In this document: one piece after another, positions 65 to 20,099 of the stretch
Layout: the number at the start of each line of letters is the position of its first letter
Numbering within the stretch: the stretch's first letter is position 1
Origin: Sinomonas atrocyanea
GTDB lineage: Bacteria; Actinomycetota; Actinomycetes; Actinomycetales; Micrococcaceae
DNA length: 24,000 nt
Direction of reading: 5' to 3'
Assembly: GCF_001577305.1 (NCBI RefSeq)
Contig: NZ_CP014518.1
Location: 135,365 to 159,364 of the forward strand
The notes under the pieces: model-generated
Told to the model about the DNA's origin: nothing
What the model saw: only the letters and a program-made list of their open reading frames with translations
Database searches by the model: none
Position numbers and translations under genes: made by a program

Positions 65-1132
65 ATGGGAACCACCACTCACCAGGCATCCTTCGGGGAG
101 CCCTCGGCATCCCGCGGGGACACGCAGGTCCAGAACACGGCGTCGCCCGCGACGCGCACCGCCAGGACCTCTCCCGCCGGCGTCCGATCAGGGGCCGCCC
201 GCGCCCTCCGGGCCCTCCCGGGCCCGCTGCTCGGGCTCGTCGCCGTCATGATCGTGTTCTCGATCCTCTCGCCCTACTTCCTCACGTGGCGCAACCTGTC
301 CAACATCATCAGCCAGAACGCCGACCTCGGCATCATGGCGGTCGGGGCCGCGCTGGTCATCCTCATCGGCGGGATCGACCTCTCCGTGGGCTCCAACCTC
401 GCGCTGTCCCTGATGGTCAGCGCGTGGCTGTTCCGCTCGGGGGGCCTGCCGTTCGGCCTGTGCGTCGTGATCGGGCTCGTGACCGGCGCGGCCGTGGGGC
501 TGGTCAATGGGATCCTCTCCACCTACGGGCGCATCCAGCCCTTCGTCGCGACGCTCGCCACCATGTCCGCCTGCGCGGGCCTGGCGCTCTACGTCACCAA
601 CGGCAACCCCATCAACGACTTCCCGGACTGGTACCTCGCCCTCACCAGCACCCCCGTCCTCGGCATCCCGCTCGAGGGGCTCATCATGGTCGCGATCTTC
701 GTGCTCGCCGCCTTCTGGCTCCGCTTCCGCCCCACCGGGCGGGCGCTGTACGCCATCGGAGGCAACGCCGAGGTGGCGCGCCTGTCGGGCCTGAACGTGA
801 CCAGGATCAAGATCGGCGTGTACATGATCGCCGGCCTCCTGGCCGCGGTGGCGGGCGTGATCGTCGGATCCCGGCTCGACTCCGCGCAGCCGACGGCGGG
901 CACGGCCGACCTCCTCAACGTCATCGCCGTGGTCGTGATCGGCGGAGCGAGCCTCTCCGGCGGCTCGGGCGGAATGCTCAACACCTTCATCGGCCTGCTC
1001 ATCATCGGGGTCCTCAACAACGGGATGTCGCTGCTCAATGTCTCCCCGAACCTCCAGCCCGTGGTCATCGGGGTCGCCATCATCGTCGCCGTCCTGACCG
1101 ACCGCGCCAGCCGAAGCCGCCAGGGCTCATGA
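65..1132 (+). CDS. ABC transporter permease, CUT2 (ribose/monosaccharide) type
   Basis: 355-aa ORF with many hydrophobic spans. RbsC/AraH-like motifs are present (GGIDLSVGS; RPTGRALYAIGGNAEVARLSGLNV; VVIGGASLSGGSGG). An ORF open from the window edge stops at 51-53, just upstream, so this is probably an internal gene of an operon that starts left of the window. Confidence 0.9.
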   Translation: MGTTTHQASFGEPSASRGDTQVQNTASPATRTARTSPAGVRSGAARALRALPGPLLGLVAVMIVFSILSPYFLTWRNLSNIISQNADLGIMAVGAALVILIGGIDLSVGSNLALSLMVSAWLFRSGGLPFGLCVVIGLVTGAAVGLVNGILSTYGRIQPFVATLATMSACAGLALYVTNGNPINDFPDWYLALTSTPVLGIPLEGLIMVAIFVLAAFWLRFRPTGRALYAIGGNAEVARLSGLNVTRIKIGVYMIAGLLAAVAGVIVGSRLDSAQPTAGTADLLNVIAVVVIGGASLSGGSGGMLNTFIGLLIIGVLNNGMSLLNVSPNLQPVVIGVAIIVAVLTDRASRSRQGS

Positions 1133-1162: not shown

Positions 1163-2641
1163 ATGTCCACTGAGACGTACATCGTCGAACCGATCGCCGA
1201 GATGCTCGACGAGGCCGATCCGGGGCGGACGCTCGCCCCCTGCGGCATCGACCAGCTCATCATCGGCCCTGACGCGCTGAGCGCCGTGCCGGCCACCCTG
1301 GGCGAGCTCCTGGCCTCCGCGGCGGCGCCGCGGGACGGGGCTGCCCGGGCGCGCGTGGCGCTCCTCGTCGACAGGACCCCGATCCTGCGCGGCGAGCAGA
1401 ACGTCAAGGACGCCGTCGAGGCGCAGCTCGCCGACCAGTTCGACGTCACCCGCACGGTGCTCGACGACGGGCACCCTGAACTCCACGTGGTGGACCCGAT
1501 CCTCGACGAGGCGGCCGAGGCGGCCGCGGGCAAGGCCGCGGTGGTGGCCATCGGCGGGGGCACCATCAGCGACATCGCCAAGGTCGCCGTCCAGCGGGCA
1601 GGGGAGGCCGGAGAGCGGCCGGTCCTGCTCACGGTGCAGACTGCCGCCTCCGTGGACGGCTTCACGGACGACGTCTCCGTGGTCCTCCGCAACGGCGTCA
1701 AGCGCACGGTGCCCTCGGCATGGCCGGACGCGGTGGTCTCGGACACGCTCACCATCGCCGGCGCACCGGAGGCCATGAACCGCGCTGGCTTCGGCGAGAT
1801 GACCTCGATGCTCGTGGCGCCCGCGGACTGGCGCCTCGCCTCCCTCGTGGGGACCGACCCGACGTTCAAGCCCAGCGCGGTGACGCTGCTCGCCTCCGTC
1901 GGCAAGGACCTCGAGAGCTGGAGCGCGGGAGTGCGCGAAGCCCGCTCCGATGCGGTGGCCTCCCTGGCGCGCGCACTCGCCCTGCGCGGCATCGTCACCG
2001 GGGTGGCAGGGACCACGGCCGTGCTCTCCGGCGTCGAACACCTCATCAGCCACATGCTCGACCAGTACCGCGGCGGCCACGGGCTGCCGATCGGCCTCCA
2101 CGGCGCCCAGGTCGGGGCCGGCGCGGTCATCGCCGCGACCGCCTGGGAGATGCTCTTCGAGCGCCTGGAGCGTGCCTCGGACCGGCCGAGGATCGCCACG
2201 AAGGCGCTGGACCGGGGCCGCAGCCGGGAGCGTGTGCTGTCCGCCTTCGAACGGGTCGATCCTAGCCTGCAGGTCGCCGAGGAATGCTGGAAGGACTTCT
2301 CGGCCAAGCTCGACGCCGTGGAGCGGAACCTCCCTCGCATCACTGCTCTGCTGGGCGACTGGGCCGAGGCCCGGGACGAGCTCCGCGGCCTCGTCCGCCC
2401 CGCGGACGCCATCGCCTCGGCCCTCACCGAAGCGGGCGCACCTGCCGCCCTCTCCGATCTCGAACCGGCGGTGGAGCCCGAACTGGGCCGCTGGGCCGTC
2501 GAGAACTGCGCGCTGATGCGCAACCGGTTCACGGTCGTGGACCTGCTCACGCTCCTCGGATGGTGGGAGCCGCAGGATGTGGACGAGGTGCTGGAGCGGG
2601 CCGCGCGCGCCGGCGCGAAGGCGGAAGCAGGAGGGAAGTGA
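1163..2641 (+). CDS. sn-glycerol-1-phosphate dehydrogenase-like oxidoreductase (AraM/EgsA family, iron-ADH/DHQS-like superfamily)
   Basis: 492-aa ORF. Family motifs: glycine-rich nucleotide loop AIGGGTISDIAK, metal-ligand region QTAASVDGFTDD, SGVEHLISHMLD, C-terminal RNRFTVVDLL. AGAGGAA lies upstream of the ATG, 30 nt after the permease stop. It is longer than typical family members, so substrate assignment is uncertain. Confidence 0.75.
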   Translation: MSTETYIVEPIAEMLDEADPGRTLAPCGIDQLIIGPDALSAVPATLGELLASAAAPRDGAARARVALLVDRTPILRGEQNVKDAVEAQLADQFDVTRTVLDDGHPELHVVDPILDEAAEAAAGKAAVVAIGGGTISDIAKVAVQRAGEAGERPVLLTVQTAASVDGFTDDVSVVLRNGVKRTVPSAWPDAVVSDTLTIAGAPEAMNRAGFGEMTSMLVAPADWRLASLVGTDPTFKPSAVTLLASVGKDLESWSAGVREARSDAVASLARALALRGIVTGVAGTTAVLSGVEHLISHMLDQYRGGHGLPIGLHGAQVGAGAVIAATAWEMLFERLERASDRPRIATKALDRGRSRERVLSAFERVDPSLQVAEECWKDFSAKLDAVERNLPRITALLGDWAEARDELRGLVRPADAIASALTEAGAPAALSDLEPAVEPELGRWAVENCALMRNRFTVVDLLTLLGWWEPQDVDEVLERAARAGAKAEAGGK

Positions 2642-2645
2642 CACC

Positions 2646-4160
2646 ATGCAGCGGGACTACGTGATCGGCGTCGACTGTTCGACCACCGCCGCCAAGGCGG
2701 TCGTGTGGAACTCCCGCGGCGACGCCCTCGCCCAGGCGCGCTGCGCCTTCGGCCTGAGCCAGCCCCATCCGGGGTGGGGCGAGCAGAATGCAGAGGACTG
2801 GTGGGCGGCCTCGGTCGAGGCGATCCGGCGGGCCTCCCAGGCCGTCGACGTCTCGCGCATCGGCGCCGTGTGCATCACCCACCAGCGCGAGAGCTTCGTC
2901 TGCCTGGACGCCGAGGGCCTCCCCCTCAGGCCCGCGATGCTGTGGCTGGATACCCGGGCCACCAAGGAGGTCTCCGCGTTCGGGACGGAGGAGGTCCACC
3001 GGCTCACCGGCAAGCCCGCCAATCCGACGCCGGCCTGGTACAAGCTGCACTGGCTGGCCGCCAACGAGCCCGACACCGTCGCCCGGATCGGGAAGGTGGT
3101 CGACGTCCACGGCTTCCTCGTCCACCGCTTCACCGGGCAGTGGCTCACCTCCTGGGCCTCCGCCGACCCGCTCGGCCTCGTCGACATGACGACCTTCGAC
3201 TACGACCAGTCCCTCCTGGACGCCGTGGGCCTCGAGCGCGGCCAGCTCAGCGAGCTGCGCGCCCCGGGGAGCGTGCTGGGTCGTCTGACGGACGACGCCG
3301 CGCGGCAGCTCGGTCTTCCCCGCGACGTTGTCGTCGTGGCCGGCGCGGGGGACGGCCAGTGCGCCCAGCTCGGGTCCGGGGCCACGGTGGGCGGGCGGGC
3401 ATACCTCAACCTCGGCAGCGGCATCGTCTCCGGCACGTTCTCCGAGCACTACTCCTACGCCCAGGAATACCGGACGCTCTCGGCGGCCCAGCCGGGCGCG
3501 TACACGCTCGAGACCTTCATCGGCGGCGGCACCATCAACCTGACCTGGTTCGTCGAGAAGTTCTCCGGGATCACGCAGGGCGCGCTCGGCCTCGACCTCA
3601 CTCCCGAGCAGATCCTCGAGACCGCTGCGGCGAAGCTGCCCCCGGGCGCCGAGGGCCTGCTGGCGCTCCCGTACTGGACCGGGGCGCTCACGCCCTACTG
3701 GGACCACCACGCCCGGGGAGTCCTGGTCGGGCTGACCGGCATCCACGGCAAGGCCCACGTCTACCGCGCCCTCCTCGAGGGGCTCGCCTTCGAGCAGCGC
3801 CTCCTGACCACGGGGGCCGAGCAGGCCCTCGCGGAGCCGGTCGCCGAGATCATCGCCCTGGGCGGCGGGTCGCGGAGCCCGGTGTGGTGCCAGATCATCG
3901 CCGACGTCATGCAGCGCAGCGTCTCGGTGGTCCGGGAGCCGGAGAGCACCTGCCTGGGTGCGGGGATGCTGGCGGCCTCGGCCGTGGGCCTCCACGAGTC
4001 CGTCGCGGCCGCGGCCAAGGCCATGAGCGGGCTCGGTGTCTCCTATGAGCCGCGGCCGCAGCAGGCCGCGGTCTACGACCGCCTCTACGACGTCTACCGG
4101 GACATCTACCCGTCCAACCGGGCACTGTTCGCCCGCCTGGCAGAGGCGGTGCGGCCATGA
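2646..4160 (+). CDS. FGGY-family carbohydrate kinase (xylulokinase-like)
   Basis: The track ORF is 2577-4160. I place the start at ATG 2646 (MQRDYVIGVDCSTTAAKAVVW), preceded by GGAGGGAAG and 4 nt after the upstream stop. FGGY hallmarks: GVDCSTTAAK, ITHQRESFVCLD, VVAGAGDGQCAQLG, GGGSRSPVWCQIIADV. Confidence 0.85.
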   Translation: MQRDYVIGVDCSTTAAKAVVWNSRGDALAQARCAFGLSQPHPGWGEQNAEDWWAASVEAIRRASQAVDVSRIGAVCITHQRESFVCLDAEGLPLRPAMLWLDTRATKEVSAFGTEEVHRLTGKPANPTPAWYKLHWLAANEPDTVARIGKVVDVHGFLVHRFTGQWLTSWASADPLGLVDMTTFDYDQSLLDAVGLERGQLSELRAPGSVLGRLTDDAARQLGLPRDVVVVAGAGDGQCAQLGSGATVGGRAYLNLGSGIVSGTFSEHYSYAQEYRTLSAAQPGAYTLETFIGGGTINLTWFVEKFSGITQGALGLDLTPEQILETAAAKLPPGAEGLLALPYWTGALTPYWDHHARGVLVGLTGIHGKAHVYRALLEGLAFEQRLLTTGAEQALAEPVAEIIALGGGSRSPVWCQIIADVMQRSVSVVREPESTCLGAGMLAASAVGLHESVAAAAKAMSGLGVSYEPRPQQAAVYDRLYDVYRDIYPSNRALFARLAEAVRP

Positions 4161-5008
4161 GGGCGCCGGCTCCCGGGGCGCCGGGGGTGCCCGAGGCCAC
4201 GGACGTGAAGGCCTACGAGGGCTACCTCTTCGACCTCGACGGCACGATCTACCTCGGAGACGAGCTCCTGCCCGGAGCCGAGGACCTCATCCGGGGGCTG
4301 CGCAGCTCCGGCCGGGAGACCCTCTTCCTGTCGAACAATCCCACCAAGGACCCCCAGATGTACGCCGACAAGCTGACCAGGCTCGGCCTGGCCACGTCGC
4401 CGGAGCGGATCGTGAACCCCTTGGTCACGATCGTCGCGTGGCTGCGTCGGGAGGCGCCGGGCGCGGCGGTCTTCGTCATCGGCGAGGACCCCCTCGTGCG
4501 GGCCATCAGCGCGGCGGGCTTCCGCCTGACCGAGGACCCCCGGGAGATCGATGTGGTCGTGGCCAGCTACGACCGCGGCTTCGACTACCGCAAGCTGCAG
4601 ATCGCGTTCGATGCGCTGTGGCAGTACCGGCGGGCGCGGCTGGTCGCGACGAATCCCGACGCCTACTGCCCCATGCCGCAGGGCCGGGGCGAACCGGACG
4701 CCGCGGCGGTGATCGCCGCCATCGAGGCGAGCACGGGAGCCAAGTGCGAGGCGAACGTGGGCAAGCCCGCGGCCGTCATGCTCACGACGGCGCTCGAGGT
4801 GCTGGGTCTGCCCGGGGCGCAGTGCCTCATGGTGGGCGACCGGCTGCACACCGACATCGCCATGGCTGCCTCGGCCGGCATCGACTCCGCACTCGTCCTG
4901 ACGGGCGAGAGCACCGAGGAGATGGCGCGCCAGCTTCCGCGGGACCGCCAGCCCACCTACATTCTGCCGCGGATCGACGCGCTTCTGGCCCCGTTCGCCG
5001 GGGCCTAG
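4157..5008 (+). CDS. HAD-IIA family sugar-phosphate phosphatase (NagD/AraL-like)
   Basis: 283 aa. All four HAD motifs are present: LFDLDGTIY, FLSNNPTK, NVGKPAAV, VGDRLHTDI. ATGA start/stop overlap with the kinase (4157-4160). Confidence 0.85.
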   Translation: MRAPAPGAPGVPEATDVKAYEGYLFDLDGTIYLGDELLPGAEDLIRGLRSSGRETLFLSNNPTKDPQMYADKLTRLGLATSPERIVNPLVTIVAWLRREAPGAAVFVIGEDPLVRAISAAGFRLTEDPREIDVVVASYDRGFDYRKLQIAFDALWQYRRARLVATNPDAYCPMPQGRGEPDAAAVIAAIEASTGAKCEANVGKPAAVMLTTALEVLGLPGAQCLMVGDRLHTDIAMAASAGIDSALVLTGESTEEMARQLPRDRQPTYILPRIDALLAPFAGA

Positions 5009-5026
5009 GAAACCGGGTTGAAGAAG

Positions 5027-5087
5027 CCCTTGCTCCATGGCCGCACCCATCGGTAGAATTTCAATTCAGATCAGGAATATTTACTCA
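5027..5087 (+). promoter_or_regulatory. Predicted promoter plus two operator-like quasi-palindromes for the E1-lipoyl-aldolase-E2 operon
   Basis: This is the only AT-rich stretch in the 88-nt gap after the HAD gene. Elements: CCCTTGCTCC (-35 TTGCTC at 5030-5035), an 18-nt spacer, and TAGAAT (5054-5059). GAAT-TTCA-ATTC at 5056-5067 overlaps the -10. GAAT-ATTT-ACTC lies at 5075-5086, exactly 19 nt downstream. The same motif pair occurs at three other promoters in the window. Confidence 0.5.
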
Positions 5088-5096
5088 AAGCGAGGA

Positions 5097-6086
5097 ATGA
5101 TGGATCTCTCCCCAACCACCCAGCTGGAGATGCAGCGGCGCATGCTGCGGATCCGCCGCTTCGATGAGCGGGCCTCGCGCATGGTCAAGCGCGGGCAGAT
5201 CCCGGGAACCGTGCACACGAGCATCGGCCAGGAGGCCCAGGTCGTGGGCGCCTGCATGGCGCTCGGCGACGGCGACTACATGTCCGGGAACCACCGCAGC
5301 CACGGGCACCCCATCGGCAAGGGCTCGCCGCTGGGCCCGCTGATGGCCGAGCTCGTGGGCAAGGCCACCGGAGTGTGCCAGGGCAAGGGCGGGTCCCTGC
5401 ACCTTGCGGACTTCGCCGTCGGCAGCCTGGGGGAGTCGGGCATCGTCGGCTCCTCGATCCCGATCGCCACCGGTGCGGCCCTGTCGAGCAAGGTGCTCGG
5501 CAACGGCAAGGTCTCCCTGGCGTTCTTCGGGGACGGCGCCGCCAACCAGGGCTGCCTGTACGAGGCGATGAACCTCGCCGGCGTCTGGAAGCTGCCCGTC
5601 GTCTTCCTCTGCGAGAACAACCAGTACGCGCTCTCGACCCCCGCCCACACGGTCACCTCCGGCGTGATCGCCGAGCGTGCCGCCGGATTCGGCATGCCCG
5701 GCGTGCGCGTCGAGGACGGCCAGGACGTCCTCGCGGTCCACGAGGCCGTGGTCGAGGCGGTCGAGCGCGCCCGCCGCGGAGAGGGCCCGTCCCTCGTGGA
5801 GGTGGTGACCTACCGCTTCAACGAGCATTCCGAGGGCCTGCGCCTCGGCACCGACTACCGCGACGCGAGCGAGAAGGCGGCCTGGGTCGAGCGCGACCCG
5901 ATCGTCCTGTTCCGCCAGCGGCTCGAACGTGAAGGGGTGGCCTCCGCCGAGGAGCTGGACGCCCTCGAGGCCGAGGTCATGGCCGAGGTCGACGAGGCGG
6001 TGCGCTTCACCGACGAGAGCCCCTACCCGGACCCCAGCGTCGCCTTCAAAGACCTCTACACCGAACCGATCGGAGCGATCGCATGA
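5097..6086 (+). CDS. Thiamine-diphosphate-dependent dehydrogenase E1 alpha subunit (acetoin/pyruvate dehydrogenase E1 family, AcoA-like)
   Basis: The track ORF starts at 5037. I prefer ATG 5097 (or 5100), preceded by GCGAGGA, because 5037-5096 is promoter-like AT-rich sequence. Family motifs: HTSIGQEA, NHRSHGHPIGKG, TPP-binding FFGDGAANQG...CENNQYA. Confidence 0.9.
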   Translation: MMDLSPTTQLEMQRRMLRIRRFDERASRMVKRGQIPGTVHTSIGQEAQVVGACMALGDGDYMSGNHRSHGHPIGKGSPLGPLMAELVGKATGVCQGKGGSLHLADFAVGSLGESGIVGSSIPIATGAALSSKVLGNGKVSLAFFGDGAANQGCLYEAMNLAGVWKLPVVFLCENNQYALSTPAHTVTSGVIAERAAGFGMPGVRVEDGQDVLAVHEAVVEAVERARRGEGPSLVEVVTYRFNEHSEGLRLGTDYRDASEKAAWVERDPIVLFRQRLEREGVASAEELDALEAEVMAEVDEAVRFTDESPYPDPSVAFKDLYTEPIGAIA

Positions 6087-7129
6087 CTGTCATGAGCTAC
6101 CTCGGCGCCATCGGTGCCGCCCAGCGCGAGGCCATGGAGGCCGACGAGCGGGTGGTCATCATCGGCGAGGACGTCGAGGCCAACGTCTACGGCACCACGG
6201 GCGCCGGCAAGTCCCGCAAGGACAAGGGCGACTTCCTGGAGATGTTCGGGTCCAACCGGATCCGCAACACCCCGATCTCCGAGGAGGTCATCGTCGGTTC
6301 GGCCATCGGCGCCGCGATGACGGGCCTGCGCCCTATCGTCGACCTCTCGTACTCGAGCTTCCTGTACATGGCCATGGACCAGTTCGTGAACCAGGCGGCC
6401 AAGAACCGGTACATGTTCGGCGGCCAGGCCTCCATCCCCGTGGTCTTCCGCTCGGCGATGTTCTACGGGCTCAACACCGGAGCGCACCACTCGGACCGCC
6501 CGTACCCGATGTTCATGAACGTCCCCGGCCTGAAGATCATCGTCCCCGCCACCCCGTACGACGCCAAGGGGCTCCTGCGCACTGCGGTCGACACCGACGA
6601 CCCGGTGCTGACCTTCGAGGCCTGCATGCTCTGGGGCAGCAAGGGCGAGGTGCCCGAGGAGGAGTTCTGGATCCCCTTCGGCCAGGCCCGGGTGGCGCGC
6701 CAGGGCAGCGATGTCACGGTGGTCGCGATCTCCAGCGCCGTGCCCGAGGCCCTCGCGGCCGCAGAGGTCCTGGGAGAGGACGGCCTCTCCGTCGAGGTGA
6801 TCGACCCGCGCACCCTCGTGCCGTTCGACACCGAGGCGGTGATCCGGTCCGTGCAGCGCACCGGCCGGCTCGTGATCGCCGATCCCGCGCACCGCACGTG
6901 CTCCGCGGCGGCGGAGATCTCGGCGATCGTCGCGGAGGAGGCCTTCGAGTCGCTCAAGGCGCCGATCATGCGCGTCACGACGCCGGACACCCAGATCCCG
7001 TTCAGCCCGGCGCTCGAGAAGCAGCTGTACCCGAACCGGGCCAAGATCGAGGACGCCATCCGACGGGTCACCGGCCTGATGGCGAACACCTCCAACCCAG
7101 AACTGACGTCGCCCGCGCCGCGGATGTGA
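6083..7129 (+). CDS. E1 beta subunit (transketolase-like pyrimidine-binding and C-terminal domains, AcoB-like)
   Basis: 348 aa. Motifs: VIIGEDV, RNTPISEEVIVGSAIGAAMTGLRPI, KIIVPATPYDAKGLL. ATGA overlap with E1 alpha (6083-6086). Confidence 0.9.
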   Translation: MTVMSYLGAIGAAQREAMEADERVVIIGEDVEANVYGTTGAGKSRKDKGDFLEMFGSNRIRNTPISEEVIVGSAIGAAMTGLRPIVDLSYSSFLYMAMDQFVNQAAKNRYMFGGQASIPVVFRSAMFYGLNTGAHHSDRPYPMFMNVPGLKIIVPATPYDAKGLLRTAVDTDDPVLTFEACMLWGSKGEVPEEEFWIPFGQARVARQGSDVTVVAISSAVPEALAAAEVLGEDGLSVEVIDPRTLVPFDTEAVIRSVQRTGRLVIADPAHRTCSAAAEISAIVAEEAFESLKAPIMRVTTPDTQIPFSPALEKQLYPNRAKIEDAIRRVTGLMANTSNPELTSPAPRM

Positions 7130-7164: not shown

Positions 7165-7407
7165 ATGGCTAGAGTCGAGGTCCTGCTGCCGCAGTGGGGT
7201 ATGGGCATGAGCGAGGGCACCGTTGCCACGTGGCTCAAGAACGTCGGGGACAGCGTCGCCGAAGACGAGCCGCTCGCCGAGGTCGAGGCGGAGAAGGTCG
7301 AGGAGACCCTCGAGTCGCCGGCCTCCGGCGTCCTGGCCGAGATCGTCGTCCCCGAGGGCGAGACGGTCGAGGTCCGCGCCGTGCTGGCCTACATCGAGAC
7401 GGCCTGA
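7165..7407 (+). CDS. Stand-alone lipoyl-attachment domain protein (E2 N-terminal lipoyl domain only)
   Basis: 80 aa. E2-type signature LPQWGMGMSEGTVATWLKNVGDSV...LAEVEAEKVEETLESPASGVLAEIVV. The predicted lipoyl-lysine is K44 (codon 7294-7296). Strong RBS GAAGGAGAG. The ORF stops immediately after the domain (IETA*). Confidence 0.8.
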   Translation: MARVEVLLPQWGMGMSEGTVATWLKNVGDSVAEDEPLAEVEAEKVEETLESPASGVLAEIVVPEGETVEVRAVLAYIETA

Positions 7408-7437: not shown

Positions 7438-8304
7438 ATGCCACAGGTTGACCCCCGCCAGATTGTCGACGAGGCCACCAGCGGCGGCTACGCCGTCGGA
7501 GCGTTCAACATGCACAACGAGGAGACCACCGAGGCCCTCGTCAGGGCCGCCGAGCGCGCCCAGTCTCCGGTCTTCCTCCAGGTCGGACGGGCGATCGTCC
7601 CGCACATGGGCCTCAAGAAGGCCTACGAGATGACGCGGCGGATCGCCGAGGAGTCGGACGCGGAGTACGTCATCCACCTGGACCACGGCCCGTGGGACGA
7701 GGTCTTCGAGGCGATCAAGCTCGGCTTCACGTCCATCATGTACGACGGCGCGCACCTTCCGTTCGAGGAGAACATCCGCACCACCCGCCGGGTGGTCGAG
7801 GTGGCCCACGCATTCGGCATCCCGGTGGAGGCCGAGCTGGGCAAGATCCCCAACGCCGACGAGCAGGTCGACTGGTCCTCGTACTACACCGACGTGGCCG
7901 AGGCCGAGCGGTTCGTTTCCGAGACGGGAGTGGACTTCCTCGCGATCTCCGTGGGCATCGTCCACGGCGTGCCCCTCGCCAAGCCGCAGCCGCTCGACAT
8001 CCAGCGCGTCAAGCAGATCGAGGCCGCGGTCGGCATCCCCCTGGTCCTGCACGGCGCCTCCGGGGTGCCCGACAACGAGATCCTCGCGGCGATGGCCGCC
8101 GGCGTGCACAAGTTCAACGCCGACACGGACCTCCGCCTCGCCTTCCGCTCGGGCATCGAGGATGTCTGGGCCCAGGGCGACCGCCAGCTCGAGGAGGCCA
8201 TGGCCGAAGGCCGCGAGCGCATGATCGAGGCAACCGTCCAGAAGATGAAGCTCTACGGCTGTGCCGGCAAGGCCCAGCATCGCCGGCAGCTGGTCCAGCA
8301 GTGA
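7438..8304 (+). CDS. Class II (metal-dependent) fructose/tagatose-bisphosphate aldolase family protein
   Basis: 288 aa. Motifs: YAVGAFNMHN, VIHLDHG, GFTSIMYDGA, VEAELG, LAISVGIVHG, LVLHGASG. RBS AGGAAGGGA. Confidence 0.9.
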   Translation: MPQVDPRQIVDEATSGGYAVGAFNMHNEETTEALVRAAERAQSPVFLQVGRAIVPHMGLKKAYEMTRRIAEESDAEYVIHLDHGPWDEVFEAIKLGFTSIMYDGAHLPFEENIRTTRRVVEVAHAFGIPVEAELGKIPNADEQVDWSSYYTDVAEAERFVSETGVDFLAISVGIVHGVPLAKPQPLDIQRVKQIEAAVGIPLVLHGASGVPDNEILAAMAAGVHKFNADTDLRLAFRSGIEDVWAQGDRQLEEAMAEGRERMIEATVQKMKLYGCAGKAQHRRQLVQQ

Positions 8305-8969
8305 CCACCGAGCAGCGCGAGGACAGCGTCACCACCCCCCTCAAGGGCATCCGGCGCACCGCCGCGCGGCGGATGACGGCCGCCTGGGGCGCGCCGGCGT
8401 TCCACCTCTCGACGAGCGTTGACATGGGTTCGGCGCTCTCCGTGAAGGAGCGCGTCCCGGGGGCCACGGTCACGGACGCCATCCTCGCGGCCTGCGCGGC
8501 GGCGCTCCTGGAGCATCCGGCGATCAACGCCCACTACGCCGACGAGGCCGTGACCGCGTTCGGGCAGGTCAACCTGGGCCTCGCCGTCGACACCCCGGCC
8601 GGACTCATGGTGCCGGTCATCAAGGATGCGGCCCGGCTCGACCTGACTGGCATCGCGGAGGCGAGGCGCGACCTCGCCCAGCGTGCCCGCCAGGGCAGCC
8701 TGACGATGGCGGACGTCTCGGACGGGACCTTCACGGTCTCCAACCTGGGCATGCTGGGCATCGACTACTTCGACGCCATCCTCAACGTGCCCCAGGTGGC
8801 GATCCTCGCCATCGGCACCACGCGCGAGGAGCAGGTCAGGGACGGCGACGGCGCCATCAGCTGGCGCCCTCGGGCCCGGATCACCCTGACGTGCGACCAC
8901 CGGGCCGTCGACGGCGCGACCGGGGCCCGGTTCCTCACCACGGTGAAGGACCGGCTGGAGACCGCGTAG
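8301..8969 (+). CDS. 2-oxoacid dehydrogenase E2 acyltransferase catalytic domain only (no lipoyl domain, no peripheral-subunit-binding domain)
   Basis: This is the last 222 codons of track ORF 7692-8969. The upstream part of that ORF is off-frame aldolase sequence. GTG 8301 overlaps the aldolase stop (GTGA). The protein starts about 10 residues before the conserved PLKGIRRTAARRM entry of the catalytic domain. It has GTFTVSNLG and the active-site motif CDHRAVDGA. Confidence 0.8.
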   Translation: MTTEQREDSVTTPLKGIRRTAARRMTAAWGAPAFHLSTSVDMGSALSVKERVPGATVTDAILAACAAALLEHPAINAHYADEAVTAFGQVNLGLAVDTPAGLMVPVIKDAARLDLTGIAEARRDLAQRARQGSLTMADVSDGTFTVSNLGMLGIDYFDAILNVPQVAILAIGTTREEQVRDGDGAISWRPRARITLTCDHRAVDGATGARFLTTVKDRLETA

Positions 8970-11157: not shown

Positions 11158-12621
11158 TCAGTGGAGGCGGCTCACCACCTCGCGGATGAGGGGCCACACG
11201 CGCGCCACCGAGGTGAAGTTCACCGACTCCTTGGGGGAGTGGAGGTCGTGGAGCTCCGTGCCGATCGAGATGATGTCGAGGCCTGGCAGCTTCTGGCTGA
11301 ACATGCCCAGCTCGAGGCTGCACTGGGAGACGTGGACCTCGGGATCGGTGCCCATGACCTCCGAGTAGGCCTTCCGGGCGACGTCGAGCAGCTTCGAGTC
11401 CGGCCGGTAGGGGAACTCCGGCGCGTCGAGCCCGTACTGCTCGACCGACGCGCCGCCGCCCGCGAGGGCGACCAACGAGCGCACCCTGTCCAGGATCTCG
11501 TGCTTGCGCGAGGTGACGGCCGCCGTGATGGTCGACATGAGCCGTGCGCCGTCCGCGGTGGTGCGGACCGTCCCGAGGTTGTTCGAACTCTCCACGATGC
11601 CCGGCACCGTGAGGCTCCAGCTCAGGACGCCGTTCGGGATCAGCGCGGTGAGCCGCGCGAAGCGCGCCCCCGCGGCCGCCGAGAAGACGTCCTCCGGGCG
11701 CTCCGCCGAGTCGAGCTCGAGCCGGATGCCCGGATCGGCCTTGCGGTACTCGTTGAGCAGCGTGCGCTCGAGCTCGGAGACGGCGTCGGCCACGGCGCGG
11801 ACGTCCTCCGGCCGCAGCGACAGCACCACCTGGGCGTCCGCCGGGATGGCGTTGTTCTGCGCTCCGCCGTGGGGATCGCTGATCCTGACGTCGAACCGGT
11901 CCATCAGGGTCGTGAGCGCCCGCGCCAGGACGAGGACGGCGTTCGCACGCTCCAGGTGGATGTCGAATTCGCAGTGCCCGCCGGCCAGGCCGCGGACCTT
12001 GAGCAGACGCGTCTCGGTATGCGTGCCGGGCACCGGCTCCCACTCTGCGGGCACGTCGACGGTGAAGGTCACGTCGCCGCTGCAGCCGGCGAGGATCTCC
12101 TTGTCGGTGATCCAGTTGAAGTCGATCATCCGCTTCCCGGACAGCTTCGACGTGTCGAACTGGGCGGCTCCCACCTTCCCCTTCTCCTCCATGGCGGTCA
12201 GGACCGCCTCGAGGGGCGGGTGCGGGATGTCCTTCGAGTCGAGGAGCGCCAGGATGTAGGAGACGCCGATGCCGTTGTCGGCCCCGAGGGAGGTCCCGTT
12301 CGCGGTGACGAAGTCACCGTCGATGAGGAGCTCGATCGGATCCTGTTCGAAGTCGTGGGTGACGCCGTCCTCCTTCTCGCACACCATGTCCAGGTGCCCG
12401 TGGAGGATCAGCGGCGGTGCGCCCTCCAGGCCATGCTGGCCGGGCTTCTTCACGAGGACACAGTGCAGATCGTCCTGCGTCGCCTCGAGGCCGCGCTCGC
12501 GGGCGAAGTCGACGACCCAGTCGGCGACCTCCTTCTCGTTGCCGGAGCCGCGGGGGATGTTGGACAGGCTCTCGAAGAACGAGAACACCTCTTGGGGCTG
12601 GATCGATGTGAGGGTGGGCAT
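11158..12621 (-). CDS. pepD: Aminoacyl-histidine (Xaa-His) dipeptidase, M20C family
   Basis: This is the C-terminal 487 aa of track ORF 11158-13635. The start is at ATG 12621 (MPTLTSIQPQEVFSFFESLSNIPRGSGNEKE), preceded by AGAAGGAA. PepD hallmarks: HGHLDMV, LGADNGIG, EEKG, ELHDLHSPKE. Sequence upstream of 12621 in that ORF is off-frame permease sequence. Confidence 0.9.
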   Translation of the reverse strand: MPTLTSIQPQEVFSFFESLSNIPRGSGNEKEVADWVVDFARERGLEATQDDLHCVLVKKPGQHGLEGAPPLILHGHLDMVCEKEDGVTHDFEQDPIELLIDGDFVTANGTSLGADNGIGVSYILALLDSKDIPHPPLEAVLTAMEEKGKVGAAQFDTSKLSGKRMIDFNWITDKEILAGCSGDVTFTVDVPAEWEPVPGTHTETRLLKVRGLAGGHCEFDIHLERANAVLVLARALTTLMDRFDVRISDPHGGAQNNAIPADAQVVLSLRPEDVRAVADAVSELERTLLNEYRKADPGIRLELDSAERPEDVFSAAAGARFARLTALIPNGVLSWSLTVPGIVESSNNLGTVRTTADGARLMSTITAAVTSRKHEILDRVRSLVALAGGGASVEQYGLDAPEFPYRPDSKLLDVARKAYSEVMGTDPEVHVSQCSLELGMFSQKLPGLDIISIGTELHDLHSPKESVNFTSVARVWPLIREVVSRLH

Positions 12622-12644
12622 CGGGCTGTTCCTTCTCTGGCTGC

Positions 12645-12672
12645 CCGGGCCGCCTGCGAGGGGCGGCCCCGG
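12645..12672 (-). other. Intercistronic GC-rich hairpin between permease and pepD
   Basis: GGGCCGCC (12647-12654) pairs with GGCGGCCC (12662-12669). Two extra pairs form across a one-base bulge. No U-tract. The function (attenuator or mRNA stabiliser) is not established. Confidence 0.3.
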
Positions 12673-12707
12673 ATGGTGGTCGTGGAGGCTGGGGGAGCGA
12701 CCTGGGG

Positions 12708-13724
12708 CTACTTCACCACGCCTTGGCGCTTCCTGCCCATGGTCAGGGCAACGGCGACGATGATGACGAGCCCGTAGACGAGGCTCTGGGCCTGGGGGCT
12801 GATGCCCACCGAGGTCGCGCCGATGGGCACGAGGCCCACGGTGAGGGCGCCGAACACGATGTTGATCGGATTCGTGACACCGCCGGTGATGGCCGTGCCG
12901 CCCACGATCGCGGCGGTGATGCCCGGGAGCAGCAGGTCGCTGCCGAGCCCGAAGGAGGAGGCTGCGCCCGCCTGGGCGATGACGAGCACGCCGGCCAGCC
13001 CGGACAGCAGGCCCGAGAGGGCGAAGGCTGCCACCTTCAGCCAGCGTGTCCGCAGGCCGGAGAAGAGGGCGCCGCTCTCGTTCAGGCCCACGGCGGTCAT
13101 CCCCTGCCCGGACCGGGTGAACCGGAGCACGGCCCACAGGACGACGGCGCACACGACGCCGACCCAGAACGCCAGGGGCAGGCCCACGAGCGCGGTGCCG
13201 AACAGCGGGGCGAGCAGATCCGTGTTGGCGGTGGCGTAGACGGTCGTCGCGTGGCTGACCTCGAGCGATGCGGCCTGCACGATGCCGAGCGTGCCGAGCG
13301 TGAGGGCGAACGAGGGGATCTGGCCGAAGGCGATCAGGAACCCGTTCACGGCGCCGATCAGGGTCACCACGACGAGCGTGAGCAGGGGGGCCGCCGGGCC
13401 GAGGGGCTCCAGCGCCTGCGCGAGGATCATCGCCGAGAGCACCACGGTGGCGGCGTTGGAGAGGTCGATGGAGCCGACGTTGAGCACCATCGCCTGGCCC
13501 AGGGCCACGAGCAGGATGGGCGCTGCCTGCACCGTCAGGATGCCGAGGCCGCCGCCTGTGACGAAGGTCGGAGTCAGGACGGCCACCAGGGCGAACAGGG
13601 CGATGAAGACGGCGACCGGGCCCACGGTCTGCCACAGGCCGGCGGGGCGCAGGGTCACCCGCTTCTGCTTGCCCGAGGAGGGGGCGGAGAGCGGCTCCGG
13701 TCGGAGAACGGCGTTGTGTGTCAT
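12708..13724 (-). CDS. ABC transporter permease, CUT2 type (second permease)
   Basis: 338 aa, polytopic. Motifs: GSIDLSNAA, RFTRSGQGMTAVGLNESGALFSGL, IVGGTAITGG. Confidence 0.9.
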   Translation of the reverse strand: MTHNAVLRPEPLSAPSSGKQKRVTLRPAGLWQTVGPVAVFIALFALVAVLTPTFVTGGGLGILTVQAAPILLVALGQAMVLNVGSIDLSNAATVVLSAMILAQALEPLGPAAPLLTLVVVTLIGAVNGFLIAFGQIPSFALTLGTLGIVQAASLEVSHATTVYATANTDLLAPLFGTALVGLPLAFWVGVVCAVVLWAVLRFTRSGQGMTAVGLNESGALFSGLRTRWLKVAAFALSGLLSGLAGVLVIAQAGAASSFGLGSDLLLPGITAAIVGGTAITGGVTNPINIVFGALTVGLVPIGATSVGISPQAQSLVYGLVIIVAVALTMGRKRQGVVK

Positions 13725-13728
13725 GGGA

Positions 13729-15285
13729 TCACACCATCTTTTCCAGGAGGTCTAGGGCTGTGGGGGACTCGACGGAGAGGTCGAAGCTGCCGGTGATCTC
13801 GCCGTCGCGCATCACGAGGACGTCGTCGCCCATCTCGAGCGCCTCCTCGAGCGTGTCGGGGAGGAGGACGACGGCGGCTCCGGCACTCTGGGCGGCACGG
13901 ATCTGTTCGTTCACCGTCTGGGCAGCTCCGGGGTCGAGGCCCCTGAGCGGGTGGTCGAGGAGGAGGATCTTCAGCTCGTCCGAGGCGAGCCACTTGGCGA
14001 GGACCACCTTCTGCTGGTTGCCGCCGGAGAAGCTCGCGAGGCGGAGGCGCGGGTTGCGCGGGCGGATGTCGAGCCGCTCGAACCAGTCGGCTGCCGCCTT
14101 CGCCTGGGTGCGCCGCTTCAGGAACGGGCCCCACGCGGCCTTCCCGGGGTGGGCGAGGGTGAGGTTCTCGGCGGCGCTGAAGCCTCCGACCATCCCTTCG
14201 ACCTTCCGTTCGGCGGGGATGTAGGCGATTCCGGAGCGCACGGCCGCCCGGATGGACCATGAGCGGACGGGACCGCCGGCGACGGCGATCGTGCCCGAAT
14301 CGAAGGTCTCGGCGCCGAAGATCGCCCGGCTGAGGGATTCGCGTCCTGAGCCGAGGGCGCCGACGATGGCGGTGCAGCGGCCCGGGGCGAGGGAGAAGGA
14401 GATGTCCTTGAACTGGCCCTTCTTCTTCAGGTCCTTCACCTCCAGCACGGCAGGCTCGGGCGCGGTCCGCTCGGCCCGCTGCTTCGGGGCGGCCTTGGCC
14501 TCGTGGCCGATCATGAGTCGGAAGAGGTCATCCTCGGTCACGGATTCCCGCCGCCGGTCGGCAACGACCTGGCCGTGCCGCATGACGATCACGCGGTCGC
14601 AGATCCTGAGGATCTCGTCGAGGCGGTGGGAGACGAAGAGCACCGAGCCGATGCGCTTGAGGGCGCGGATCTCGCGCTCGAGGATCTCCGTCTCGTTGCG
14701 TTCCAGGACGGCCGTGGGCTCGTCCAGGATGACCAGGGGCGCGGCGTGGACTGCCTCGTCGACGCGCAGCGCGCGGGCGATCTCCACCATCTGGCGGTCC
14801 ACGAAGGAGAGATCGCCGACGGTCGCGCGGGGATCGATCGTGGAGCCGACGCGCTCGAGGACCTTCCCGGCCTCCTGGTTGAGGCGGTTCCAGCGGTAGA
14901 AGCCGTACCGGGTGGCCGCATCCTTCGAGGAGAGGGCGTTCATCGCGATGTTCTCGGCCACGGAGAGGTTCGTCAGGAGTGACTGCTCCTGGTGGACGAC
15001 GCCGATCCCTGCTGCCACTGCGTCCTGCGGCCGGCGGAACTTCACCTCGCGGCCGTCTGCCTCGATCACCCCGGAGTCGGGCTGGTGGAGGCCCGTGAGG
15101 ATCTTCAGGAGCGTGGACTTGCCGGCGCCGTTCTCGCCGATCAGGCCGACGACCTCGTGCCTCGGGATCTCCAGGGAGATGTCCTTCACGGCCTGGACGG
15201 GGCCGAAGGACTTCGAGACGCGGGTGAGCTTCAGGGCGGGGCTGTGGAGCGCTGCTGTGGCGGGTGCCACGGATGCGTGGGTCAT
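13729..15285 (-). CDS. ABC transporter ATP-binding protein, duplicated NBD (RbsA/MglA-like)
   Basis: This is the C-terminal 518 aa of track ORF 13729-15864. The start is at ATG 15285 (MTHASVAP), which overlaps the upstream permease stop (ATGA). NBD1: GENGAGKST, VILDEPTA. NBD2: GALGSGRES, FSGGNQQK, LLLDHPLRGLD. Confidence 0.9.
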   Translation of the reverse strand: MTHASVAPATAALHSPALKLTRVSKSFGPVQAVKDISLEIPRHEVVGLIGENGAGKSTLLKILTGLHQPDSGVIEADGREVKFRRPQDAVAAGIGVVHQEQSLLTNLSVAENIAMNALSSKDAATRYGFYRWNRLNQEAGKVLERVGSTIDPRATVGDLSFVDRQMVEIARALRVDEAVHAAPLVILDEPTAVLERNETEILEREIRALKRIGSVLFVSHRLDEILRICDRVIVMRHGQVVADRRRESVTEDDLFRLMIGHEAKAAPKQRAERTAPEPAVLEVKDLKKKGQFKDISFSLAPGRCTAIVGALGSGRESLSRAIFGAETFDSGTIAVAGGPVRSWSIRAAVRSGIAYIPAERKVEGMVGGFSAAENLTLAHPGKAAWGPFLKRRTQAKAAADWFERLDIRPRNPRLRLASFSGGNQQKVVLAKWLASDELKILLLDHPLRGLDPGAAQTVNEQIRAAQSAGAAVVLLPDTLEEALEMGDDVLVMRDGEITGSFDLSVESPTALDLLEKMV

Positions 15286-16313
15286 TTGACGATCCTCAAT
15301 CTGCTGCGATGGGGCCAGGCTGCGGCGAGGACAGCCGCGATGAGGACTGCTCCGGACACCGCGGACTGGAGGTTCGGGCTGACGCCGCTGAGGATGAGCC
15401 CGTTGTTCAGGACGGTGAGCATCAGCACCCCGACTGCGGTGCGGAGGATTCCGCCCTTCCCTCCTGCGAGGGAGGTCCCGCCGATCACGACGGCGGCGAT
15501 GGTGAGGAAGAGGTTGCCGGTTCCGACCGTAGCCGAGCCTGCGCCGAGCTGCAGGCTGGCGAGGATCCCCGCGCCGGCACTGCAGGCGCCTGCCGCCACG
15601 AAGACGTAGACCTTGTACCTGCCGACGGGCACGCCGTTGGCCCGGGCGATCTCCTCGTTGTTGCCGATCGCGTAGGCGAAGCGGCCGAGGCGGGTGAACC
15701 TGGTGACGCCGATGCCCACCAGGGCCACCACGGCGGCTAGGAGGAACGAGTTCGGCAGGCCGAGGGTGAGGCTCGTGGGCCAGGACTTGAGGCCCTGGTC
15801 GGAGAGGAACGGGATGGACGCCTGGCCGAACAGCAGCGTGGCGATGCCGAGCCCGACGAACCACACGCCGAGGGTGACGATGAAGGACGGCACCTTCAGC
15901 TGGGTGTGCACGAGGCCGTTGACCAGGCCGAGCCCTGCGCCGACCGCCAGCGCGACCGGGATGGCCCAGAACCCGAGGTCGGCGGTGCCGCGGCTGTTGG
16001 CCGAGAGGAGGACGAAGGTCATCCCGGCGGCCCCCATGAGGCCCTCGACCGAGAGGTCGATGGAGCCGGTCAGGATGACGAGCGTCGACCCGACCCCGAT
16101 GATCAGGGGAAGCGCGGCGTGGTCCAGGATCGTCCGGGCGTTGTCCGGGCTGAGGAAGGAGGAGGGGTTGAGTGCCGCGAACACCGCGATCAGGGCGATC
16201 AGGGCGGCAACCTCGCCGAGATTCCTGAGCTCGAAGCGGTGCCGGCTCGGGGTGGGTTTGTGCTGAGCGGGTGCCGGGATCAGAAGCCCCGTGCCGCTGT
16301 CCTTTGCTGTCAT
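15282..16313 (-). CDS. ABC transporter permease, CUT2 type (first permease)
   Basis: 343 aa, polytopic. Motifs: GSIDLSVEG, RFTRLGRFAYAIGNNEEIARANGVPV, VVIGGTSLAGGKGG. Confidence 0.9.
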   Translation of the reverse strand: MTAKDSGTGLLIPAPAQHKPTPSRHRFELRNLGEVAALIALIAVFAALNPSSFLSPDNARTILDHAALPLIIGVGSTLVILTGSIDLSVEGLMGAAGMTFVLLSANSRGTADLGFWAIPVALAVGAGLGLVNGLVHTQLKVPSFIVTLGVWFVGLGIATLLFGQASIPFLSDQGLKSWPTSLTLGLPNSFLLAAVVALVGIGVTRFTRLGRFAYAIGNNEEIARANGVPVGRYKVYVFVAAGACSAGAGILASLQLGAGSATVGTGNLFLTIAAVVIGGTSLAGGKGGILRTAVGVLMLTVLNNGLILSGVSPNLQSAVSGAVLIAAVLAAAWPHRSRLRIVK

Positions 16314-16340
16314 TGCTCTCTCACCTGCTGTTGTTCGGGT

Positions 16341-16381
16341 GTGCGGCGGCTCCGTCAGGAGTCCGGACGGAGCCGCCGCAC
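16341..16381 (-). other. Intercistronic stem-loop after the binding-protein gene
   Basis: GTGCGGCGGCTCCGTC (16341-16356) pairs perfectly with GACGGAGCCGCCGCAC (16366-16381), giving a 16-bp stem and a 9-nt loop. It sits in the 75-nt gap between the SBP stop and the permease start. No U-tract. The position is typical of hairpins that raise SBP:permease expression ratios. Confidence 0.55.
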
Positions 16382-16388
16382 GGGGCCG

Positions 16389-17516: not shown

Positions 17517-17562
17517 CAGTGACTCCTTCGTAAGAGATGGCCCGGGGTTCCTGCAGATCGAT

Positions 17563-17630
17563 GAATAACAATTCAGTGCCTGCATTTGGATTCTTCGAGT
17601 GTGCGGCACGTCACTTCTGCGTGTCAAGGG
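17563..17630 (-). promoter_or_regulatory. Predicted promoter plus two operator-like sites for the ABC-transporter operon
   Basis: Read on the minus strand: CCCTTGACAC (17630-17621), an 18-nt spacer, then CACACT (17603-17598). GAAT-CCAA-ATGC follows at 17593-17582 and GAAT-TGTT-ATTC at 17574-17563. The two sites are 19 nt apart, and the second lies 46 nt upstream of the start codon. Confidence 0.5.
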
Positions 17631-17670
17631 ATCAAATTCCCGCGGGGCCAGAAGACGCCCGCGGCGCGGA

Positions 17671-17707
17671 AAGAGGGAGGACCCTGCGGGGCAGGGTCCT
17701 CCCTCTT
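17671..17707 (-). terminator. Rho-independent-type terminator downstream of the epoxide hydrolase gene
   Basis: AAGAGGGAGGACCCTGC pairs with GCAGGGTCCTCCCTCTT, giving a 17-bp perfect stem and a 3-nt loop. It lies 18 nt after the stop codon. On the minus strand it is followed by a short pyrimidine/T-containing run (CTCTTTCC). Confidence 0.7.
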
Positions 17708-17724
17708 CGGGCGGCGGCGAGCCG

Positions 17725-18969: not shown

Positions 18970-19041
18970 TGCGCCTCCTCGTGAGATGGGTGGGGTCGGA
19001 GGATGAAGTTCGTGGGGCGCCCAGGGGGCGCCGGGCGCCGT

Positions 19042-19989: not shown

Positions 19990-20034
19990 GGCTACCTCCA
20001 AGAGCGACGGACCGAGCGGCCCGATGACAGCTGT

Positions 20035-20099
20035 GAATTGATATTCGTAGATCCAATCAATATGCACTCATGGTGCGATGCGGATCACACTGCTGTCAA
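20035..20099 (-). promoter_or_regulatory. Predicted promoter plus two operator-like sites for the BKACE/epoxide-hydrolase operon
   Basis: Read on the minus strand: CCGTTGACAG (-35 TTGACA at 20099-20094), an 18-nt spacer, then CACCAT (20075-20070). GCAT-ATTG-ATTG follows at 20065-20054 and GAAT-ATCA-ATTC at 20046-20035. The two sites are 19 nt apart, and the second lies 45 nt upstream of GTG 19989. Confidence 0.5.

Follow-up and report, generated by a model that had tools for sequence, protein, structure and literature searches.

The window analysed here is a 24,000-nucleotide stretch of a complete, 4.49-Mb Sinomonas genome (C1:135365-159364; 70% G+C), in which three adjacent genes at positions 1163-5008 encode a protein resembling sn-glycerol-1-phosphate dehydrogenase (G1PDH), an FGGY carbohydrate kinase and a HAD-IIA phosphatase. 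We suggest, with a probability of about 0.55, that this triad and the CUT2-type importer encoded upstream of it form the uptake-and-activation module of a SorC-regulated sugar-alcohol or ketose island, in which the kinase, the dehydrogenase and an aldolase would act in that order. The imported compound would be a sugar alcohol or ketose of small size, most probably with four to six carbons and, as our best guess, of the size of a pentitol or pentulose; the dehydrogenase is a predicted polyol- or ketose-phosphate dehydrogenase. Among public sequences, the locus is nearest to that of Sinomonas atrocyanea (98% protein identity).

All three genes lie on the forward strand and follow the final gene of a transporter operon, which encodes a CUT2-type sugar or polyol ABC permease (65-1132, forward strand; Pfam BPD_transp_2) whose best NCBIfam match is a ribose permease. 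The binding-protein and ATPase genes are located just upstream of the window (L002 9827-10879 and 10898-12418), and the PDB entries nearest to this binding protein are ribose-binding proteins. The permease stop codon (TGA, 1130-1132) is separated by 30 nt, including AGAGGAA, from the ATG at 1163 that opens the gene for the long-form G1PDH-like dehydrogenase (1163-2641, 492 aa; Pfam Fe-ADH_2). This gene ends in TGA at 2639-2641 and is followed, after four nucleotides (CACC), by the ATG at 2646 of the kinase gene (2646-4160, 504 aa; Pfam FGGY_N and FGGY_C), which overlaps the gene for the NagD/AraL/PGP-type phosphatase (4157-5008, 283 aa; Pfam Hydrolase_6 and Hydrolase_like, TIGR01460) in an ATGA at 4157-4160. 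These junctions behind a sugar ABC permease, which had been reported in a first-pass annotation made from the sequence alone, can all be read directly, and the family assignments made there are correct by Pfam and NCBIfam matches. The motifs it listed are likewise present, both in the dehydrogenase (GGGTISDIAK at residue 131, AASVDG at 161 and EHLISHMLD at 292) and, for the four HAD-IIA motifs, in the phosphatase (DLDGT at 26, LSNN at 58, GKP at 202 and GDRLHTD at 227).

The association of these genes is conserved well beyond Sinomonas. A scan of one genome per species found a relative in 168 species, and the best 80 loci, which come from related genomes and are not independent samples, were analysed using tblastn with the window proteins. 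They span Micrococcaceae, Nocardioidaceae, Nakamurella, Geodermatophilus, Nanopelagicales, Acidimicrobiia, Rhodobacteraceae and Hyphomicrobiales. An FGGY kinase gene lies directly downstream of the dehydrogenase gene in 74 of 75 loci, in both Actinomycetota and Alphaproteobacteria, and the arrangement is therefore far beyond chance. The HAD phosphatase gene follows the kinase gene in 45 of 69 loci, being present in Actinomycetota and mostly missing in Alphaproteobacteria. Among the 48 loci with full flanks, genes for the E1 alpha and E1 beta subunits, a lipoyl carrier and the aldolase are all found within 10 kb of the dehydrogenase gene in 46, and an E2 core gene in 39; a GlpD-like gene (27 loci) and a GlpK-like gene (17 loci) are also found within this distance, and 25 of them retain the transporter genes (binding protein SBP1). 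This co-conservation gives good support to the earlier proposal that the locus encodes an uncharacterised polyol or ketose route, and runs counter to the possibility, also raised in the first-pass annotation, that the triad might not be conserved together with the E1/E2/aldolase genes.

A frequent gene order is E1 alpha, E1 beta, lipoyl carrier, GlpD-like, GlpK-like, aldolase, E2 core, dehydrogenase, kinase and HAD phosphatase, while a minimal operon in Alsobacter comprises the dehydrogenase, kinase, SorC regulator, E1 alpha, E1 beta, lipoyl carrier and aldolase genes plus a lipoate ligase gene. In the Alsobacter soli metagenome-assembled genome, this private LplA/LipB-type lipoate ligase gene (L077 17002-17709) stands after the aldolase gene, there is no E2 core gene, and a gene for a Zn-dependent MDR dehydrogenase lies just upstream of the G1PDH-like gene. 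The dehydrogenase gene is patchily distributed in its own order, occurring in 5 of 200 other genomes and in none of the 11 sampled from the same family, which fits an accessory, mobile island.

Pairing with FGGY kinases extends to other subclades of long-form dehydrogenases, whose genes also adjoin kinase genes of this family. In one protein of 1001 aa, P0209, an FGGY kinase is fused to an Fe-ADH_2 dehydrogenase; the kinase portion resembles GlpK and is only 25% identical to the window kinase, which rules the fusion out as an orthologue of the gene pair studied here. A 976-aa open frame elsewhere (G154:C13:28740-30116; L104) is a fusion or near-fusion of an FGGY kinase and a long-form Fe-ADH_2 protein. 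Long-form paralogues also occur with an FGGY kinase beside a Puu-like gamma-glutamylation set (L109 1023-10942; amino-acid permease, glutamine-synthetase-like protein, peptidase C26 and aldehyde dehydrogenase), with an FGGY kinase beside a GH38 alpha-mannosidase gene (L110 1414-8174), and beside xanthine-dehydrogenase-like genes, where no adjacent FGGY kinase gene was found (L103 3802-12442). The contexts of these paralogous subclades, including the last three, are too varied to yield the name of a substrate.

The dehydrogenase belongs to the Fe-ADH_2 family (PF13685, E = 1.9e-17) and, by both fold and catalytic residues, is nearest to the G1P dehydrogenases AraM and archaeal EgsA. A sequence search of solved structures returned only G1P dehydrogenases and the related 3ce9 protein as relatives, with glycerol dehydrogenases marginal. 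An AlphaFold model built with 38 homologues (mean predicted local distance difference test score 93, predicted template modelling score 0.93) has Bacillus subtilis AraM (9h4x) as its best PDB neighbour, with a target-normalised template modelling score of 0.81, followed by the Methanocaldococcus jannaschii G1PDH. Its score against the curated G1PDH equivalog model is 113.4 bits, below the cut-off of 413 bits (NCBIfam NF002022). In a maximum-likelihood tree, which had no outgroup and included the archaeal rows as core segments only, the query and 44 proteins of about 440-500 aa form a long-form clade with 100% support in the Shimodaira-Hasegawa-like approximate likelihood-ratio test (SH-aLRT), apart from both the AraM clade and the archaeal G1PDH/3ce9 group (99% each). 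The 492-aa protein, whose phylogenetic placement the first-pass annotation had proposed as a check, is thus G1PDH-like and falls outside the clade of proven G1PDHs.

The first-pass annotation had also remarked that 492 aa exceeds the typical length of AraM-like proteins. The protein is indeed about 100 residues longer than AraM, but this length is normal for its own subfamily: the 120 best homologues are about 480-510 aa long, except for two truncated fragments, and a profile search of 1.84 billion representatives returned 706 clusters at E < 1e-30, with most full-length proteins among the 150 clusters listed measuring 440-500 aa. Two elements account for the extra length, a C-terminal helix and an insert that is helical and about 55 residues long (query 345-410). 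Homologues are labelled as generic iron-containing alcohol dehydrogenases by NCBI and as 'glycerol-1-phosphate dehydrogenase' by the Joint Genome Institute (JGI) and in some UniRef entries. In Bacillus, the G1P made by AraM is used by PcrB/GGGPS. No match to this family (PF01884) was found in the 100%-complete Sinomonas genome, while a control search was positive in B. subtilis and archaea. Because the 492-aa protein stands outside the proven-G1PDH clade and far below the curated cut-off, activity towards dihydroxyacetone phosphate (DHAP) and G1P should not be assumed for it. We suggest that the long forms make up a distinct, uncharacterised and kinase-coupled clade of several hundred clusters at 50% identity, with an insert and a pocket of their own.

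At the residue level, the query shares D165, E292, H293, H297, H313, K180, R453, R455 and T457 with AraM and the M. jannaschii G1PDH. The metal ligands are D165, H293 and H313; these three and H297 are invariant in the query clade and align with AraM and with the M. jannaschii and Pyrobaculum calidifontis G1PDHs. In the other long-form subclades, Asn is the commonest residue (41%) in the column of D165, which may mean that metal binding is altered there or that some members are not catalytic. The EHxxSH and HGxxVG motifs are conserved, and further motifs are found at 312 (LHGAQVG) and 452 (MRNRFT). The latter contains a C-terminal RxRxT (R453-x-R455-x-T457) that is kept in AraM and the M. jannaschii G1PDH, whereas Escherichia coli glycerol dehydrogenase GldA, whose substrates are unphosphorylated, has CAEGET. 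We take the retention of RxRxT as support for a phosphorylated substrate. Other positions set the query clade apart: D169 is invariant within it and is Ser in AraM, in the M. jannaschii and P. calidifontis G1PDHs and in 3ce9, and R275, also invariant, is replaced in the same proteins by Ser, Cys or Asn. Further differences from proven G1PDHs are Q159 (Pro in G1PDHs) and E212 (Asp), and the insert at 345-410 carries the motif ECWxD[YF]xxKL, with E374 and K382 unchanged in all long forms. The separate clade, the 55-aa insert, D169 and R275 together point to a substrate other than that of the G1PDHs.

The kinase scores below every equivalog cut-off tested. Its best FGGY model is XylB (TIGR01312, 297 bits against a cut-off of 380.25), followed by the FGGY gluconokinase model at 235 bits, and it reaches 136 and 105 bits against ribulokinase models with cut-offs of 428 and 583. 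Among solved structures, it is best matched by a Lactobacillus 'gluconate kinase' and E. coli XylB. The kinase is thus XylB/GntK-like, not ribulokinase-like. The phosphatase, a standard member of its subfamily, exceeds the HAD-IIA cut-off (TIGR01460, 126.1 bits against 100.15) and, although 37% identical to AraL over 252 aa, is about equally close to other NagD/pNPPase-type HAD-IIA proteins.

Based on these findings, we propose that the XylB-like kinase would phosphorylate a terminal CH2OH group of the imported compound, and that the G1PDH-like enzyme, using its metal site (D165, H293, H313) and NAD(P)+, would then oxidise the secondary hydroxyl beside the phosphoester with the same stereochemistry as in the oxidation of sn-G1P to DHAP. 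The kinase product is our candidate for the dehydrogenase substrate because the two genes are near-obligate neighbours and the two families are occasionally fused. sn-G1P is D-glycerol-3-phosphate, and its configuration is that of the final two carbons in the terminal phosphates of D-sugars and D-polyols, the kind of phosphate that xylulokinase-type kinases make; GlpD-type enzymes, such as EryB in the breakdown of erythritol, act on the opposite end, which is of the L type. The product would carry a 1-phospho-2-keto, DHAP-like end, which class II aldolases of the FBA/KbaY family require of their substrates, and this would let the class II aldolase release DHAP and a short aldehyde. The E1, lipoyl carrier and E2 core would handle a two-carbon ketol or aldehyde fragment. 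Since the HAD-IIA phosphatase is dispensable in many lineages, we regard it as an accessory that may serve as a relief valve for phosphorylated intermediates, a role proposed for AraL, or as a phosphatase for one end product.

Several points weigh against this proposal. The pathway schemes that we tried (a pentitol to DHAP and glycolaldehyde; a ketose bisphosphate to DHAP and phosphoglycolaldehyde; 1-deoxy or 6-deoxy sugars to acetyl-CoA) do not give every conserved gene a necessary role, and both the part played by E1 and the lipoyl carrier and the need for a GlpD-like as well as a G1PDH-like dehydrogenase are not accounted for. Every catalytic residue needed for plain DHAP/G1P chemistry is present, and phosphate binding by RxRxT is suggested by the distribution of the motif. 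The P0209 fusion speaks for coupling at the level of the kinase and dehydrogenase families and not for coupling of this particular gene pair, and a phosphatase that is translationally coupled to the kinase looks futile unless it acts on another phosphoester.

Comparison with described systems helps to place the island. The first-pass annotation had described the three genes as an AraM/AraB/AraL-like triad, which stands at the family level, since Bacillus likewise combines these three protein families in a single sugar operon; an overlap of araL and araM is seen in a Bacillus locus (L090) as well, and AraM shares the metal ligands and the EHxxSH, HGxxVG and RxRxT motifs in addition to being the best structural match. 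Orthology, however, is not supported. The dehydrogenase is 28% identical to B. subtilis AraM over 206 residues, all within the core, falls in a separate clade and carries the insert and C-terminal helix that AraM lacks; the XylB-like kinase is 23% identical to B. subtilis AraB, and the HAD protein 37% identical to AraL. No araA, araD, arabinose uptake or arabinofuranosidase genes were found in the window or in the upstream region, the genome has no PcrB to consume G1P, and the partners in the window are E1, lipoyl carrier and aldolase genes instead of arabinose enzymes. The archaeal EgsA proteins (M. jannaschii 4RGQ and P. calidifontis 5FB3) share the fold, the metal site and RxRxT with the query. 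They differ in having only about 17-18% identity to it in structural alignment, in lacking the insert and in serving lipid synthesis, whereas the query clade is kinase-paired and catabolic in context.

A different kind of relative is found in haloarchaea, where a protein annotated as G1PDH has no G1PDH activity and instead reduces glycolaldehyde (Sato et al. 2022, PMC9700705). It acts in a non-carboxylating pentose bisphosphate pathway, in which a HAD-type ribulose-1,5-bisphosphate 5-phosphatase is followed by ribulose-1-phosphate aldolase and glycolaldehyde reductase (GaR) (PMC9700705). The combination of a HAD phosphatase, a DHAP-forming aldolase and a G1PDH paralogue is the same here (PMC9700705), but there is no orthology: the phosphatase scores 38 bits against NF053830 (cut-off 330) and the dehydrogenase 26.7 bits against NF053832 (cut-off 550), the aldolase is FucA-type in haloarchaea and FBA/KbaY-type in the window, and the haloarchaeal pathway is without an FGGY kinase and an E1/lipoyl system. 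Because the haloarchaeal protein lacks the activity for which it was annotated, annotation within the G1PDH family does not predict the substrate (PMC9700705).

Our proposal also has a parallel in organisation. The erythritol pathway of Brucella and Sinorhizobium comprises an FGGY kinase (EryA), a GlpD-like polyol-phosphate dehydrogenase (EryB), a SorC regulator (EryD) and a CUT2 transporter. As proposed here, the kinase acts first and the hydroxyl beside the phosphoester is then oxidised, and the island likewise holds a CUT2 importer, a SorC regulator and a GlpD-like paralogue. The kinase-paired dehydrogenase of the window, however, is NAD(P)- and metal-dependent and of presumed G1P-type handedness, whereas EryB is FAD-dependent and of G3P-type handedness, and the aldolase and E1/lipoyl system stand in place of the isomerases of that pathway. 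Pfam scans of the window's main open reading frames turned up no EryC, TpiA2 or RpiB-type isomerase, and we rejected a Brucella-type erythritol route on this ground. Two other candidate substrates were also rejected: in D-apiose, the carbon beside the CH2OH groups is tertiary and by this reasoning not oxidisable by a G1PDH-type enzyme, and 2-deoxyribose would offer no beta-hydroxyl for retro-aldol cleavage after oxidation. The AcoABC acetoin dehydrogenase and the transketolase step of D-apiose use resemble the island in having thiamine-pyrophosphate-dependent E1 alpha and beta subunits, lipoyl transfer and adjacent sugar-phosphate enzymes; the window differs in dividing its E2 between a free lipoyl carrier and a bare core, whose genes flank that of the aldolase. 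Literature searches found no described pathway that matches the island.

Three other explanations of the triad have to be weighed. The 492-aa protein could be a true sn-G1P dehydrogenase, interconverting DHAP and sn-G1P, in a locus that channels both glycerophosphate enantiomers to DHAP. Its best fold and sequence matches to AraM and the archaeal G1PDHs, the conserved metal ligands and EHxxSH, HGxxVG and RxRxT motifs, the JGI labels of its homologues and the GlpD-like/GlpK-like pair in the same island would all agree with this, but we consider it quite unlikely. The protein reaches 113 bits where the cut-off is 413, it belongs to a clade separate from every proven G1PDH, D169 and R275 replace G1PDH pocket residues, the 55-aa insert is conserved, and the genome lacks PcrB/GGGPS. 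Moreover, we found neither a GDPD-type phosphodiesterase nor a Ugp-type transporter to supply G1P, the partner kinase would be idle unless it made sn-G1P from glycerol and so duplicated GlpK and GlpD, and a G1PDH-annotated paralogue without the activity is already on record (PMC9700705). The claim in the first-pass annotation that the locus encodes routes to DHAP from both glycerophosphate enantiomers is thus not established, as the clade, the cut-off and the lack of PcrB speak against it. Salvage of glycerophosphodiesters, which it had also offered as an option, or of G1P was rejected, since the window's main open reading frames contain no GDPD-type domain, the transporter is of the CUT2 type with a ribose-like binding protein, and PcrB is missing.

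Alternatively, the dehydrogenase might act after the aldolase as a reductase, either of the released aldehyde, for example glycolaldehyde, as GaR does in haloarchaea, or of an aldehyde phosphate, for example L-glyceraldehyde-3-phosphate to sn-glycerol-3-phosphate (sn-G3P), which the GlpD-like enzyme would then convert to DHAP. The three enzyme types of the haloarchaeal pathway of HAD phosphatase, ribulose-1-phosphate aldolase and GaR (PMC9700705) are all represented here, and in such a scheme the G1PDH-like enzyme would work together with the GlpD-like one; the two occur side by side in alphaproteobacterial operons that have a single kinase. We nevertheless hold it to be unlikely: the haloarchaeal models match very poorly (26.7 bits against 550 and 38 against 330), the window aldolase is of the FBA and not the FucA type, near-obligate kinase adjacency and occasional fusion point to the kinase product as the substrate, and the retained RxRxT would be unneeded by a glycolaldehyde reductase. 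A phosphate shuffle, in which a ketose-1-phosphate made by the aldolase from DHAP and a two-carbon aldehyde is dephosphorylated by the HAD enzyme and re-phosphorylated by the kinase, for example to xylulose-5-phosphate for the pentose phosphate pathway, would explain the ATGA coupling of kinase and phosphatase, the nearness of the kinase to xylulokinases and the presence of a class II aldolase. It gives the dehydrogenase no role, however, and most alphaproteobacterial versions, and the minimal operon too, lack the phosphatase, although the kinase/dehydrogenase pair is retained throughout. We regard this reading as very improbable.

Downstream of the triad, an AT-rich intergenic region of 88 nt (5009-5096, read on the forward strand) contains a promoter-like TTGCTC...TAGAAT and the AT-rich, operator-like half-palindromes GAATTTCAATTC and GAATATTTACTC. 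Given this promoter- and operator-like stretch behind the HAD gene, the triad probably forms a transcription unit of its own, adjacent to and co-regulated with that of the E1 genes; the tight coupling to the E1/E2/aldolase operon described in the first-pass annotation therefore holds for adjacency and probably not for transcription. In Kocuria and Nocardioides, a SorC regulator gene is located between the HAD and E1 alpha genes. The genes that follow are all on the forward strand and were assigned by Pfam and NCBIfam matches: E1 alpha (5097-6086), whose start is most likely at 5097 and not at the first ATG, at 5037; E1 beta (6083-7129); a free lipoyl carrier of 80 aa (7165-7407); a class II ketose-(bis)phosphate aldolase (7438-8304), which is nearest to KbaY and to ketose-bisphosphate aldolase (PDB 8q57, 8q58); and an E2 that consists of the catalytic core only (8301-8969). 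A beta-lactamase-family gene (PF00144) follows the E2 core gene in Kocuria and Nocardioides (L003 18828-19715; L004 13996-14844); the same position in the window has no PF00144 gene and instead a phosphotransferase-system EIIC gene on the opposite strand. The reverse strand of the window at 11158-20067 carries a second CUT2 transporter, an M20 beta-Ala-His-type dipeptidase, an epoxide-hydrolase-like gene and a BKACE gene. This set may share a regulon or pathway with the triad, because it travels with it in several genera (for example at L019, L024, L052 and L082).

The island also encodes a SorC/DeoR-type sugar-phosphate-binding regulator (20132-21247, reverse strand; Pfam Sugar-bind), for which the top-scoring NCBIfam model is that of B. 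subtilis DeoR (192 bits, below the cut-off). Beyond it, on the forward strand, lie genes for a GlpD-like, FAD-dependent (polyol-)phosphate dehydrogenase (21299-22939; Pfam DAO and DAO_C; NF008899, 370.7 bits against 360) and a GlpK-like FGGY kinase (22936-24000, running off the window; full protein 504 aa; TIGR01311, 540 bits against 590). A canonical glpK, scoring 742 bits against TIGR01311, is found elsewhere in the genome (C1:2299370-2300857), where it adjoins a GlpD-like gene (C1:2299370-2303440, at about 2.30 Mb) 2.1 Mb from the island; the genome holds three GlpD-like genes, the third at C1:3019407-3020852. The island pair thus consists of divergent paralogues of the housekeeping glpK and glpD. 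Because GlpD- and GlpK-like genes are located inside the E1/aldolase operon in many species, with the GlpD-like gene between the lipoyl-carrier and aldolase genes, those of the island are probably pathway enzymes and not a plain glycerol/sn-G3P branch. The sn-G3P branch assigned to this pair in the first-pass annotation is accordingly disfavoured, its members being paralogues of the canonical pair at about 2.30 Mb.

A more speculative extension, which we regard as tentative and on the whole unlikely, is that the island contains two mirror-image pairs, the GlpK-/GlpD-like pair acting on the sn-3 type (L-end) and the FGGY kinase with the long G1PDH-like enzyme on the sn-1 type (D-end), so that either end or enantiomer would be converted to a DHAP-like end. 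Either enantiotopic end of a meso polyol would then be oxidised, followed by the aldolase and by lipoyl-dependent E1 cleavage. To our knowledge, G1P-type stereochemistry has so far been known from archaeal lipid synthesis and AraM; if true, the mirror-image arrangement would give it a catabolic role in bacteria. It would also add a novel activity to those known, that of an NAD(P)-dependent D-polyol-omega-phosphate 2-dehydrogenase.

Counting the long-form proteins as G1PDHs would inflate claims of archaeal-type G1P metabolism in bacteria. Identification of the substrate of the kinase and dehydrogenase offers the most direct route to solving the pathway. Based on our findings, we suggest that an undescribed lipoyl-dependent system for sugar cleavage, whose hosts include soil Actinomycetota, freshwater Nanopelagicales, and marine and soil Alphaproteobacteria, has the long-form clade as its conserved partner.

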